A stretch of 64,000 nt of DNA from Eledone cirrhosa (lineage: Eukaryota): contig OZ024743.1 in NCBI GenBank assembly GCA_964016885.1, forward strand, positions 47,740,001 through 47,804,000, given 5' to 3'. Below the pieces are notes generated by a model. That model saw only the letters and a list, made by a program, of their open reading frames with translations, made no database searches and had not been told where the DNA came from. Every line of letters starts with the position of its first letter. Position 1 is the first letter of the stretch. Below are positions 36,421-41,989 of this stretch, piece by piece. Both the position numbers and the translations under genes were made by a program.

Positions 36421-36740
36421 CTTTGTTTTATCCCCCCACTCTCAAAAGCGTGAACCTAATAAACTCCTATGTGTACTGCTTCTCTGTTTTTGTTCCCGTC
36501 TAAGATTTAACTATATATATATATATATATATATATATATATATATATATATATATATATATATATATATATATATATATATATATATATATATATATAT
36601 ATATATATATATATATGTAGGAGGTGAGTTTTATTGTAGCACAATAAAGCAATGCAAATATCGGATAAGTAGCACTCAACAGTTTATAGGACTGGAGTAT
36701 AAATTATATAAAATCAAAAGATGGTTAAAATAGTTCCATG

Positions 36741-36811
36741 TATTTTATTATGCGCATTTCAAAAACAAATATCATCATGGGATGATATTTGCGTTTTCAT
36801 CAGATAAAATA
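36741..36811 (-). ncRNA. Minimal hammerhead ribozyme (type A) in the inverted pseudo-LTR
   Basis: Reverse complement of 39094-39164 with one stem II change. Confidence 0.85.
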
Positions 36812-36860
36812 GGGAGACATGATATGAAGCTTAAAAAACACTTGCGAGCAGTGAAGTGTT

Positions 36861-38810
36861 AATAATTTATATGGTGTATCTAAAGATAAATATAATAACC
36901 TTATCCTTAAGGAACTAAGGAAGAATTATCGCAAAACTAACCATGAGAATCTGGAATCTATAAACTTGGAAGCTTCTGAGATTATGTCTAAACTTGGCTT
37001 CGAGAAAAAGACCGAACCATTCTTCCCAAGAACTCCGAGGATAAATCTTAAGGATCACAAAAGTAACGTTCGAACTGAACTACCTGTTAGACTAATCGCC
37101 TCCTCTAAATCCGATCTGGGGGTTGTTAGTAAATCCATCTTGAATAGAATTATCCCACAGGTTCGTTCTATTTCTAACTTAAATTTATGGATTGGTACAT
37201 CTGATGTAATTGACTGGTTCAATAACCTGAATAATAAAAACAAACAAAAATTTATTCAGTTTGACATTGCCAGTTACTATTCTTCTATTTCGCCTTCACT
37301 CCTCAACAACGCTCTCTCTTTTGCATTTAAATATTCTGACATCACCACAGATAAACTGTACATCATTCTCACCGTAAGAAAAACTATCCTGGAATTCAAC
37401 AACGAATATTGGACTAGAGCTGATACTTCCAACAATTTTGATATCACAATGGGTTCGTCGGATTCAGCGCAATTGACGGACTTGATTGGAATCTTTATTT
37501 TGAATTCTTTAAATCGGAAAATTCCTCAACTTCACGGTGGAATTTATCGTGACGATGCCCCTTTTACTGTCTTAAACTGTAACTTAGTTAACCTTAATAT
37601 TATTAAGAATAATATACTTGATCTATTTAAGCACCATAACCTAAAAATTTAATTTGAAAACAACATCAAACTAGCTAACTTCCTGGATATATCCCTTAAT
37701 CTTGACACCGGCCTATATTACCCTTACCATAAAGACAATGAGAATCTAAATTATGTTAATTTTAAATCTAACCACCCTATTAACGTTAAAAATGCTATAG
37801 TCAGTAATGTTGAAAAAAGAATCTCAAATCTATCTTCTAATAAACTTAACTTTGACGCTAAAGCCAATTATTACAACAATGCGCTTTCCAGAGCCGGTTA
37901 TCCTGACAAAATTAAATACAGTAAAGAAACCAATTATCGAGGAACTTATAGTAATATAGTTAGTTATAAGCATTCCAATAGCATAAAGAAAAGACCTAGA
38001 TATAAAAATATGTTTTGATACAACGCTCCTTTTTCTCTATCTATTATTAGTAATATTCCTAAACTATTTTTTAGGGCCTTAGATAAATGCTTCCCTCCTT
38101 CACATATTTATAGTAAGATCTTTAATAAGCATACAATTAAATTCTCTTATTCCACCACTTCCAACATCTCTAACATTATCTCAAAACATAATAATAAAAT
38201 ATTAAGTAATAAATTATATCCATCCAACACTGAGCGTCATAATAATAGCAATAGTAAGCCCGACGTCAATGTTAACTCTAGGCTAGACTCCGTAAATTTA
38301 AATACGACGTCAAACGTAACTTTATCGAATGTTCATAATACCAATCTAAATCAGGAAACTTTAGCACCTATCGTAAGTAACTTCTCCAATTCAATTCCTT
38401 CTATAAATAATACTGTGTCACTTGCTAATAACTCTGGATATTTCTCTAATCGTAATTGCAATTGCCCTATTAGAACTAAATATCCTCTTAGTAACCAATG
38501 TCTTGATAAAAATTTAGTGTATGAATGTAAGGTTATAACTGGTACCAATTCTTTTACCTATTTTGGTTCCACTTCCACTTCCTTTAAAGCAGGATTTTAT
38601 AATCACAATTCCTCTTTTAAATACCAACTTAAAAGAACTAACACGGCACTCTCAGAACTCATATGGTCCTTAAAGGACAAAAATATTAACTACAACATTT
38701 CTTGGAGGAAGGTTTGCAACGCCTCTCCTTACCTTAATTCTTCCCTATTCAGAACATATAATCTCTGCCTAGCGGAAAAATTTACCATTATCTCTAATTT
38801 TAATTCTATA
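36861..38810 (+). pseudogene. Penelope RT plus GIY-YIG endonuclease in one frame with two stops (TAA 37650, TGA 38016)
   Basis: INLKDHK..PVRLI..SKS.LG..SK.IL, FIQFDIASYYSSI, FDITMGS.DSAQ, YRDD, NFLDISLNL, SNHP; CNC..PL..QCL linker; VYECKV..YFGST..FK...NH..SF..LSELIW.LK..LCLAEK. Confidence 0.9.
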
Positions 38811-39093
38811 GACGTACGGATTTATTTTTGCTCTGCTTGCATAAATCCCATAGAACTTTCCATAAAGTATACAGCTACTCATTTTCTCCTCCTCTCTCAT
38901 CCTTCCTTCTTATACTCCCCTCCGTCATCCTTTCCTTATTATTATATATTCTTTCTTCCTCTTCCTTACCCTTTCCTTCCCCCCTTCTTTTCCTTTTTTC
39001 CAATCTCATATATCCATCTTATTTTATTTTTCATATGTTGATTTAACACTTCACTGCTCGCAAGTGTTTTTTAAGCTTCATATCATGTCTCCC

Positions 39094-39164
39094 TATTTTA
39101 TCTGATGAGAACGCAAATATCATCATGGGATGATATTTGTTTTTGAAATGCGCATAATAAAATA
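39094..39164 (+). ncRNA. Minimal type-I hammerhead ribozyme (type A)
   Basis: Stem I tattttat/ataaaata; CTGATGA; stem II caaatatcatc/gatgatatttg; GAAA-tgcgca-TA with palindromic stem III; predicted cleavage after 39156. Confidence 0.88.
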
Positions 39165-39629
39165 CATGGAACTCTTTTAACCATCTTTTGATTTTATATT
39201 ATATATATAAAATAATAGATTTAATACGAGCACGGAAGGAGAGAGGAAAGAAAAAATTCATAGTTTAAAATCTTCTTTTCTCAAACGCTTTTATATTTTT
39301 TACAAATATACCTATCTTTCTACCTTATTTCAGTATATTATACAATATTACTCATACTATGTCGTTAGCGGTCCCCTAACTTTCTTTTTTAATTTCTAAT
39401 CTTTAATCTGTAACTTTTACTTCTCAATTACTTCTTAATTCATCTTATAACTCACTATAGCATTATCCTTATATTCTCGGCCATACAGATCTTTATTTTT
39501 AATATATACTAATATTACCATTAGAGAAATTTTGTAAACATATTTTTTTGACGTTATATATTTTTTCTTCCTTGAATTTTTTCTTTCCTCTCTCCTTCCG
39601 TGCTCGTATTAAATCTATTATTTTATATA

Positions 39630-39978
39630 TATAATATAAAATCAAAAGATGGTTAAAAGAGTTCCATGTATTTTATTATGCGCATTTCAAAAACAAATAT
39701 CATCATGGGATGATATTTACGTTCTCATCAGATAAAATAGGGAGACATGGTATGAAGCTTAAAAAACACTTGCGAGCAGTGAAGTGTTAAATCAACATAT
39801 GAAAAATAAAATAAGATGGATATATGAGATTGGAAAAAAGGAAAGGAAGGGGGGGAAGGAAAGGGTAAGGAAGAGGAAGAAAGAATATAGATAGAAGAAA
39901 AAAAATATAATAATAAGGAAAGGATGACGGAGGAAGAGTATAAGAAGGAAGGATGAGAGAGGAGGAGAAAATGAGTGA
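39630..39978 (-). mobile_element. Solo inverted copy of the Penelope 3' pseudo-LTR
   Basis: Reverse complement of about 38876-39205 with a small insertion. Confidence 0.85.
39669..39739 (-). ncRNA. Minimal hammerhead ribozyme (type A)
   Basis: Same motif as 39094-39164 with one stem II substitution. Confidence 0.82.
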
Positions 39979-40625
39979 GAGAGAGAGAGAGAGAACCTTT
40001 AATACTGAGAAACACTGTCTCACAGAGAAAAAAAAAAAAACGTTGTAAGATAATACATCATTTAAAAAATTAAGAAATTATAAGTTAATGAGGTTTATGA
40101 ATGGTGATGCTTATGATTAAAGAAAAAGGAATTAAGAATACTATTTATTTAAGGTTTATATATTGAAGAGTTTAATAAGATGTGCGAAAAGGAATTTATT
40201 AAAATGTATTATTAAAATAAAATATATTAAGAAGATAAGGTGAATGAAGATAAGATTAAATGAATTATGAACTTAGAGGAATTAATTAGGGTCCAAGTTT
40301 GTTTCTATATATTGTAATAGAAAAAAGTAAATAATAAATTTGTTTCTACGTTAGGCACAAGGCCAGCAATTACCCAGTGTATTACTGGTACTTTAAGTAA
40401 ATAATAGATTTAATACGAGCACGGAAGGAGAGAGGAAAGAAAAAATTCAAGGAAGAAAAAATATATAACGTCAAAAAAATATGTATATATATATGCAAAA
40501 GTTCTATTTAAAATTGTTGGGATACAACAAGTAAATATTTTTATAACTGATATAAAGCACTCGACAAGTTTTTGGAGTAGATATACGATATTAAAAAATG
40601 GAAATTATATTTATAAAACCATATT

Positions 40626-40690
40626 TATTTCATTATACATATTTCAGGGATACCACATTAAATTATGGTATGCCTTCATCAGACAAAATA
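40626..40690 (-). ncRNA. Minimal hammerhead ribozyme (type B)
   Basis: Reverse complement of 41092-41156. Confidence 0.8.
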
Positions 40691-41091
40691 CAATATATAA
40701 CAGTTTTACAAATAGCTTTGACGTACCCTTTTAAAATGCAACCATTACTTTTGGAGGCTGTCTGGATAGTGATTTGTTTATATTATTTTAATAAGTCATA
40801 GTGTTAAGCACAATTTTTTTTTTTTTTTTTTTTTTTTTTTTTAAATTTCCTCCTATCTTTATTTATCTCTTTCTTTTCTCCATACATTTCTCTCTCCGAT
40901 ATTTCTCCAGGTTTTCTTTCTCTCTCTCCGTCTTTTTTCTTTTTTTCTTTCTCTCCATCTTTTTCTAATTGTGCTTAACACTATGACTTATTAAAATAAT
41001 ATAAACAAATCATTATCCAGACAGCCTCCAAAAGTAATGGTTGCATTTTAAAAGGGTACGTCAAAGCTATTTGTAAAACTGTTATATATTG

Positions 41092-41156
41092 TATTTTGTC
41101 TGATGAAGGCATACCATAATTTAATGTGGTATCCCTGAAATATGTATAATGAAATA
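41092..41156 (+). ncRNA. Minimal hammerhead ribozyme (type B)
   Basis: Stem I tattttgt/atgaaata; CTGATGA; stem II aggcataccata/tgtggtatccct; GAAA-tatgta-TA. Confidence 0.8.
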
Positions 41157-41479
41157 AATATGGTTTTATAAATATAATTTCCATTTATTAATATCGTATA
41201 TATATATATATATATACATATTTTTTTGACGTTATATATTTTTTCTTCCTTGAATTTTTTCTTTCCTCTCTCCTTCCGTGCTCGTATTAAATCTATTATT
41301 TATATATATATATATATATATATATATATATATATATATATATATATATATATATATATATATATATATACATATATATATATATATATATATATTTAAA
41401 GGTTAAACAAGGTTCAATGAATAAATCAAAGAATGAGTTTTACAATAGATTGGAAGATTGAGTATGTCATGCATCATCT

Positions 41480-41546
41480 TATTTTATCTGATGAGGACGT
41501 ACTATTGAAGTTAGCTCAGTACCTCTGAAATATGTATAATAAAATA
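41480..41546 (+). ncRNA. Minimal hammerhead ribozyme (type C)
   Basis: Stem I tattttat/ataaaata; CTGATGA; stem II ggacgtact/agtacctct; GAAA-tatgta-TA; in a 200-bp island between TA/TG microsatellites. Confidence 0.78.
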
Positions 41547-41989
41547 TACTTGATCACACGAATGTCTATTTTTGTTAATATTTTGAATTAATATATATAT
41601 ATGTGTGTGTGTGTGTGTATGTGTGTGTGTGTGTGTGCGCGCGTGTGTGTGTGTGTGTGTGTATTTGTATAAAGGTCAAAGTGTTATTCAAGCACACTTC
41701 AAAATCAATGTAATAATAACAAAAAAAATAATAATTGTTTCTACTTTTGGCACAAGGCCAGCAATTACCCAGTGCATTACTGGTACTTTATTTTAAAAAA
41801 TAATAATAAATGACCAAATATCAGATACAGTGATTGGTGACGGCACGGGTACACTAGTTATTTTATATTCGCTTTGTGGATCAGCAGAAGCAAATATTTT
41901 TTATTTTTATTTTTAGAAAAAAATTATTTTAGGTAAACTGAATGAGAAGGTGTGTCGTTATGTCTTTTTTTTTTTTTTTTCAAGGACAT

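Follow-up and report, generated by a model that had tools for sequence, protein, structure and literature searches.

Six hammerhead ribozyme motifs lie within 5 kb of a 64,000-nucleotide stretch of the Eledone cirrhosa genome (assembly GCA_964016885.1, contig OZ024743.1, positions 47,740,001 to 47,804,000 of the forward strand; the whole stretch is called the window, and all coordinates below refer to it), which raises the question of which elements carried them there and whether all of these elements are coding. An original prediction, made from the letters alone, assumed an autonomous Naiad-type Penelope-like element (PLE) together with several non-autonomous, retrozyme-like families that accumulate at the same (TA)n-rich locus. 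Judged from its sequence, the region consists of truncated insertions piled on one another, which derive from three coding PLE families, here called A, B and C, and are nested in (TA)n. For the whole reading, i.e. three truncated PLE families with Hydra-clade motifs, hammerheads that belong to their pseudo-long terminal repeats (pseudo-LTRs) and hairpins that likely mark the starts of reverse transcription, a probability of about 0.8 is estimated; that the three families are of Hydra type and nested in (TA)n is, taken by itself, very probable.

When both strands of the entire window were scanned for the hammerhead structure (core, paired stems I to III and NUH cleavage triplet), the six predicted motifs were returned at their predicted positions, all within 36741-41546, and no others (Table 1). 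In 60 block-wise dinucleotide shuffles, 0.017 loose matches on average and no strict match were obtained; the CTGATGA heptamer by itself was not enriched (14 observed versus 10.3 expected). The predicted architecture was likewise recovered: all six motifs combine the CTGATGA/GAAA core with an 8-bp AT-rich stem I (in type B, two of its pairs are G-U), a stem II that pairs and belongs to one of three unrelated sequence types (A, B and C) and a loopless stem III of 6 nt followed by TA, with AUA as cleavage triplet, and the predicted plus-strand cut sites (39156, 41148 and 41538) match the scan. They thus present the features of minimal type I hammerheads (CUGANGA/GAAA/NUH core, paired stems I and II, palindromic stem III). 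The Infernal/Rfam comparison that had been proposed as a check gave no match for these minimal forms: none of the six was found in Rfam 15, either at gathering thresholds or at E≤10.

Three unrelated stem II sequences that each pair are real evidence of selection on the predicted fold. This part of the earlier covariation argument stands; its weight, however, is that of three lineages and not of six, because the six motifs are not six independent events: the B pair represents the arms of one inverted insertion, and the A trio belongs to one rearranged complex. Among genomic copies, which are not independent of each other, core versus flank mismatches amounted to 7/605 versus 58/1595 in A and 6/737 versus 73/2546 in C; the corresponding difference in B (2/726 versus 24/2310) was not significant (p=0.06). 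Stem III and its closing pair form a perfect 8-nt palindrome in A (self-duplex energy −10.5 kcal/mol); in B and C, the palindrome includes two G-U pairs (−2.2 kcal/mol). A dimer fold with stem I and intermolecular stem III was predicted for A only. A heterodimer of the plus-strand B and C motifs, by which the 390-nt piece 41148-41538 would be excised, was considered and is not claimed; both motifs share the same stem III, and the duplex is weak. The core, the absence of a stable monomeric helix III, the palindromic stem III suited to dimers and the placement in flanking repeats agree with what Cervera and de la Pena (2014, PMC4209133) described for minimal type I hammerheads in metazoan PLEs; the new stem II sequences are the sole difference of the predicted ribozymes here. 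The earlier claim of Penelope-like minimal hammerheads situated in pseudo-LTRs was therefore correct.

First-look searches of the genome gave 1,077 candidate copies of B and 1,149 of C, 40 of each being scored. The majority of the sampled copies are short and devoid of an open reading frame (ORF), so that B and C look non-coding; a C copy at locus L104 has no ORF in 9.5 kb, being truncated, according to loci examined later, inside a long 3' untranslated region (UTR). Complete units were found for both types. At locus L081 (minus strand), the order is (TA)n, inverted B pseudo-LTR, tailed B pseudo-LTR, ORF starting from ATG, long 3' UTR, tailed B pseudo-LTR and (TA)n, the unit measuring 4,204 bp from hammerhead to hammerhead; with its reverse transcriptase (RT) as query, 95 loci were scored, many with stop-free frames of 700-816 codons, and 17 of the 30 loci fetched from this search, covered over 4.3 kb, contain a B hammerhead. 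A complete B ORF of 745 amino acids is present at locus L140. A walk up the 3' UTR of C led to loci where a Hydra-type endonuclease precedes the C hammerhead by about 2 kb; locus L165 comprises C pseudo-LTR, RT-endonuclease ORF, a 3' UTR of about 2 kb and pseudo-LTR (a 4,524-bp unit with frameshifts), and at locus L236 a frame of 750 codons lies upstream of a C hammerhead, at a distance of 2.0 kb. Read from these units, B and C are the pseudo-LTRs of their own RT- and endonuclease-coding Hydra-type families, the short copies representing 5'-truncated ends. Copies attached to an RT ORF, for which the original prediction had suggested a search, thus exist (L081, L140, L165 and L236), and what it had named as the contrary case, truncations of Penelope families, is essentially what B and C turned out to be.

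In the product of the family A ORF in the window, a GIY-YIG-type domain comes after the RT; the N-terminus is missing, two stops lie in frame, conserved cysteines are lost, and the Cys-to-Tyr changes do not occur in other copies. This copy is dead, and with its stops and truncated 5' end it is not the autonomous element that had been assumed. Its DNA is 80% identical to the intact 821-codon frames of locus L234, which belong to a sister subfamily (85-86% amino acid identity). Since many 821-codon frames are open in this subfamily and its tandem units at L234 (unit 3,896 bp) are 99.8% identical, the A lineage has been active very recently; the dozens of near-identical 821-codon frames suggest a very recent burst of the sister subfamily. 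Searches for Hydra-type RTs gave 30,000-90,000 first-look candidates in the genome.

The placement of these families in the Hydra clade is motif-based, the domains having been assigned by motif against the alignment of PMC8557442. Pfam returned nothing significant for pieces of the window ORF or for the full B protein and only a weak RVT_1 match for C, and a sequence search of PDB found no relative of the B protein. The translations of A, B and C, whose mutual identity is about 45-60%, all carry the endonuclease C-terminally, behind the RT; DKT, which in the Hydra clade replaces DKG, was found in B and C, of the clade's N-terminal RWK the RW is kept (RWR in B, RWT in the A sister; the window copy lacks the region), and by eye the B, C and A-sister proteins contain a CxCX5C linker, no CCHH, and CxxC and CxH flanking a conserved E and N. 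All of this is shared with the Hydra clade (Craig et al. 2021, PMC8557442; including Hydra-1_Obim), for which a GIY-YIG endonuclease located C-terminally and without CCHH, the CxCX5C linker, DKT, hammerheads and (TA)n targets are described; the families also share the RW near the N-terminus, the hammerhead in the pseudo-LTR, the insertion into (TA)n, the inverted upstream pseudo-LTR and the one-sided tail. In contrast to the Hydra tails of 30-40 nt, the tails here measure about 90 nt, and in contrast to the listed Hydra hammerheads with a stem III loop of 1-2 nt, stem III is a loopless palindrome. In the PMC8557442 supplement, no match to short motifs of the three families was obtained; a paper listing octopus Penelope-like families (PMC13282606) does so, in its accessible text, without mention of Hydra or ribozymes. 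As pseudo-LTR hammerheads of PLEs and (TA)n targeting by Hydra elements have both been published, the ribozyme hotspot itself is ordinary.

Two other assignments have to be weighed against the Hydra-type one. An autonomous Naiad would fit the (TA)n surroundings, since Naiads likewise prefer (TA)n, but these elements possess an N-terminal endonuclease and are without canonical hammerheads (PMC8557442), whereas the endonuclease here is C-terminal, canonical hammerheads are present, the Hydra-clade motifs include DKT where DKA would be expected, and the ORF contains two stops; a Naiad is thus practically out of the question. That B and C might be non-autonomous, retrozyme-like families, mobilised in trans and passing through small circular RNAs, is suggested by the shortness of most sampled copies and by the metazoan non-LTR retrozymes (PMC7229834; bioRxiv 10.64898/2026.07.22.740005), which also carry type I hammerheads and for which an origin from PLE pseudo-LTRs has been proposed; moreover, a true hammerhead array exists in this genome. 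Retrozymes, however, are short non-coding head-to-tail repeats, whereas A, B and C form the ends of kilobase-sized coding units: full ORF-bearing units exist for both B and C, the 5' truncation of their short copies varies continuously over the full element (in B, from 67 to more than 1,000 nt upstream of the core), no short head-to-tail B or C array occurred among the loci viewed, and the copies occur mostly solo or inverted, others flanking an ORF at a distance of kilobases. The retrozyme-like interpretation of B and C is accordingly very improbable and was abandoned in favor of the coding Hydra-type families. A caution for similar studies follows: solo pseudo-LTRs resemble retrozymes until the genome has been searched for their ORF. 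The array just mentioned (L170:256-3666) is built of 12 head-to-tail units, 310 bp long, in each of which a type I hammerhead core with a short palindromic stem III is present, and its longest frame has 59 codons; it is a real candidate for a non-LTR retrozyme.

A further feature common to the three families concerns their ends. The copies stop at one of two points about 90 nt apart, which correspond to the two known ends, tail-less and tailed. Where a copy continues into the ORF, the hairpin motif RCTCY-(5-22 nt)-GAGYRCT (hairpins 1 and 2) follows each stop point within a few bases; each full B or C unit contains exactly two such motifs and none on the other strand, against 0.014-0.016 per shuffled unit. 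Among 196 de-duplicated hammerhead copies (reference and window's own copies included), 189 were mapped, and an end was counted as near a motif within −12 to +2 nt: 99 copies ended near hairpin 1, 61 near hairpin 2, 13 ran through and 16 ended elsewhere, i.e. 160 of the 189 ended just 5' of either hairpin. The respective figures are 29, 17, 1 and 6 in A (53 of 59 mapped), 27, 22, 11 and 4 in B (64 of 64) and 43, 22, 1 and 6 in C (72 of 73). The unchanged pattern matches four more families of the genome, including 9 of 19 loci of an old family (35585-35950 in the window); of 10 instances at the family level, five have A-U and five have G-C as the outer pair, no mispair occurring although the pattern allowed mispairs. 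Related hairpins were recognized by eye in the published Hydra-2_Amil and Hydra-2_Ajap (after the hammerhead) and Hydra-1_Ajap (two, in the 5' UTR); Hydra-1_Crog and Hydra-1_Obim gave loose matches only, again by eye, and the Hydra-1_Amil consensus ends before the region. No description of a twin hairpin was found in literature searches, outside of which most subscription papers lie, or by word look-ups in the main texts of PMC11167929 and PMC8557442; the twin hairpin goes beyond the published descriptions found.

The nearest functional parallel is Poseidon_Ac (Frangieh et al. 2024, PMC11167929), which likewise has two discrete insertion 3' ends bounding the tail and AT-rich targets, and whose reverse transcription starts in vitro at two internal sites of the RNA, the same as the boundaries of the tail. 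Because the copies end at the hairpins and the Poseidon starts coincide with its tail boundaries, the hairpins are read as likely marks of the RT starts, each being a likely binding site that fixes one start. Whether the conserved, duplicated end hairpin as such is the start signal for reverse transcription is a matter of about even chances, and the same balance applies to the more general proposal of a clade-wide Hydra signal on the RNA: a hairpin of four pairs, present in duplicate and flanked 3' by RCU, would position the RT on the short U/A tract directly 5' of it, the duplication would yield the two ends and the one-sided tail, and an RNA given the hairpin would be copied into (TA)n.

Two other roles of the hairpin compete with that of an RT start signal. 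It might act at the DNA level, so that recognition by the endonuclease, or the resolution of an intermediate, and not the binding of the RT sets both ends. The tail of Drosophila Penelope is required for endonuclease recognition, as cited in PMC11167929, tails have been attributed to endonuclease-mediated resolution (PMC8557442), and the motif would pair as DNA too; but in the sole reconstituted system the tail boundaries are RT starts on RNA (PMC11167929), and the end mapping implies that at either end the copied part does not include the motif, which would be kept only in the RNA template. A DNA-level role is hence unlikely. Comparably doubtful is that the ends are set only by short TATA-like tracts annealing to the nicked (TA)n, the hairpins serving promoter, translation or packaging functions: both ends do lie at TA-rich tracts in all three families, and the hairpins are located in the 5' UTR directly before the start codon, but these AT-rich elements contain many TA tracts, and the copies end almost only at the two adjacent to a hairpin.

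Several points weigh against the reading of Hydra-type families with hairpin-directed starts. The units of the A sister (3,896 bp), B (4,204 bp) and C (4,524 bp), with 3' UTRs of 1-2 kb, exceed the size of Hydra elements, which are generally, as a tendency, below 3 kb (PMC8557442). The copies behind the end counts were picked by best similarity and are related by descent, and BLAST ends extend a few letters into the TA repeats. The shuffle figure for the hairpin motif flatters it, since the pattern was written after A, B and C had been seen. With −2 to −8 kcal/mol, the predicted hairpins have little stability, and three A fragments in the window end at an internal point of the 3' UTR without a hairpin behind it. 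Support for dimers of B and C is weak, their predicted dimers missing the active fold. Finally, the anole element Poseidon_Ac, a member of another clade, initiates inside one AC-rich stem-loop within the ORF, at a site not homologous to the target (PMC11167929), whereas the ends here are about 90 nt apart in the 5' UTR, each 5' of its own hairpin; the geometry of the start may differ between PLE clades.

From the structure of the families, their linkage to ORFs, the positions of the copy ends and the sequence of the hairpins, the following course of events may be inferred. A tandem unit would be transcribed through its own pseudo-LTR into the next unit; the RT-endonuclease would bind the hairpin on the RNA and nick a (TA)n site, and copying would start at the short U/A tract 5' of hairpin 1, giving the tail-less end, or of hairpin 2, giving the tailed end. 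Copying would usually abort early, often with an inverted second arm, and leave solo or inverted pseudo-LTRs; as such insertions would stay flanked by TA, later insertions of any family could reach the same place. Cleavage by the hammerheads would require dimers formed through their self-complementary stem III and would probably be weak or aided by protein, in line with the dimer-only, low activity of minimal hammerheads of this kind (PMC4209133). For the insertion itself the hammerheads are likely dispensable; in the Poseidon PLE, the protein assists cleavage by the hammerhead, and insertion does not require this cleavage (PMC11167929). The RTs of PLEs are the closest relatives of telomerase, and the choice between two internal starts would here map to a short, mutable motif; the near-identical intact copies of the A sister subfamily (821-codon frames in 99.8% identical tandem units) provide a protein for the published in vitro assay.

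The segments of the locus (Table 1) were assigned by mapping onto other genomic A copies. At 38877, the family A ORF is joined to the distal 3' UTR over a deletion of about 765 nt, whereas in other A copies the ORF end continues straight into the sequence that begins at 39261. Contigs from two of the three listed runs, compared with 38700-41290 (depth was not used), include no piece that spans the locus; the joint of the ORF end with the 39261 sequence was seen in them. A fourth, hammerhead-less family at 39261-39623 was ruled out, 19 of 19 fetched copies being A-family 3' UTR behind an A ORF end. The second A 3' segment is broken near 40342-40394 by a common short repeat, and the B insertion occupies the fold-back junction between 40398-40487 and 41213-41302. 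The fragments 39210-39260 and 39261-39623 have a common internal endpoint beside TA repeats, and three A 3' UTR fragments (39210, 39623 and 41302) share this one breakpoint, through which the fetched copies run; it is probably a single junction that was duplicated by fold-back. In the plus-strand A hammerhead, the stem II loop (39124-39129) is the reverse complement of the loop in both minus-strand copies and does not recur in 27 other copies, as if part of the hairpin had undergone a micro-inversion or the inverted arms had been subject to conversion.

The predicted accumulation at a (TA)n locus was borne out, but the nesting in the window is not special: after removal of overlapping duplicates and of the loci in the window itself, a second hammerhead type was present within about 3.1 kb in 12 of 70 loci (5 of 24 for B, 5 of 28 for C and 2 of 18 for A), so that mixed clusters are common in the genome. 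Two further families of this kind end immediately left of the cluster (35585-36420). The simplest cause of the nesting would be the common (TA)n targeting, each insertion leaving TA repeats at its edges.

Table 1. Segments of the ribozyme-bearing locus and hammerhead motifs in the window (strand relative to the window).
Feature	Position	Strand	Details
(TA)n target repeat	36512-36616		left edge
Family A inverted pseudo-LTR	36617-36862	-	tail of ~90 nt; 3' end at 36617
Family A end hairpin 1	36671-36698	-	RCTCY...GAGYRCT; at tail start
Hammerhead type A	36741-36811	-	descriptor scan; in inverted pseudo-LTR
Family A RT and C-terminal GIY-YIG ORF	36861-38877	+	5'-truncated; stops 37650-37652 and 38016-38018
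Family A distal 3' UTR and tail-less pseudo-LTR	38877-39209	+	
Hammerhead type A	39094-39164	+	descriptor scan; in tail-less pseudo-LTR
Family A proximal 3' UTR fragments	39210-39623		39210-39260 inverted, 39261-39623 direct
Second family A 3' segment	39624-40487	-	tail-less pseudo-LTR and 3' UTR
Hammerhead type A	39669-39739	-	descriptor scan; in second A 3' segment
Single family B insertion	40494-41195		two arms
B arm with tail	40494-40815	-	end hairpin 1 at 40556-40578
Hammerhead type B	40626-40690	-	descriptor scan
B inverted tail-less arm	40814-41195	+	
Hammerhead type B	41092-41156	+	descriptor scan
Family A 3' UTR fragment	41213-41302	+	inverted partner of 40398-40487
(TA)n	41297-41395		between A/B complex and C
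Single family C insertion	41395-41591		
C distal tail part, inverted	41395-41458	-	
C 5'-truncated tail-less pseudo-LTR	~41462-41591	+	
Hammerhead type C	41480-41546	+	descriptor scan

The sequence 35950-36420 (also L172-L195) is the end of an abundant family (3,398 first-look candidates, about 95% identical) with the same end hairpin; it displays a hammerhead-like fold with a truly looped stem III and a GUC site, but with the atypical core CTGAGAAG in 25 of 26 matches, and could represent either a variant of the core or a ribozyme that is inactive. Several of its loci have Hydra-like sequence of an RT or endonuclease nearby, and a diverged relative lies at 50100-50320, with an end hairpin at 50250 (+). 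The adjoining stretch 35585-35950 (also L197-L215) is an inverted pair of an older hammerhead-bearing family with a very long stem II and about 80% identity between copies; in the window copy, the core has decayed and the end hairpin is kept at 35599-35621 (-). At least six further hammerhead types, some of them with a CTAG or looped stem III, were noted in the flanks (L006, L047, L080, L012, L059, L044, L055, L069).

About 1.1 kb from the cluster, the first coding exon of an HscB co-chaperone gene is found at approximately 42700-43086 (+), which matches mitochondrial HscB (PDB 3bvo) with E 6e-12. Endonuclease/RT frames of the long interspersed nuclear element type are present at 50639-53581 (-), 20751-21614 (+) and 7418-8851 (+), two of the three with a PHD-finger match overlapping or behind the RT. 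The right end of the window (60173-64000) is made up of a 61-bp satellite in about 63 copies with 93% matches.

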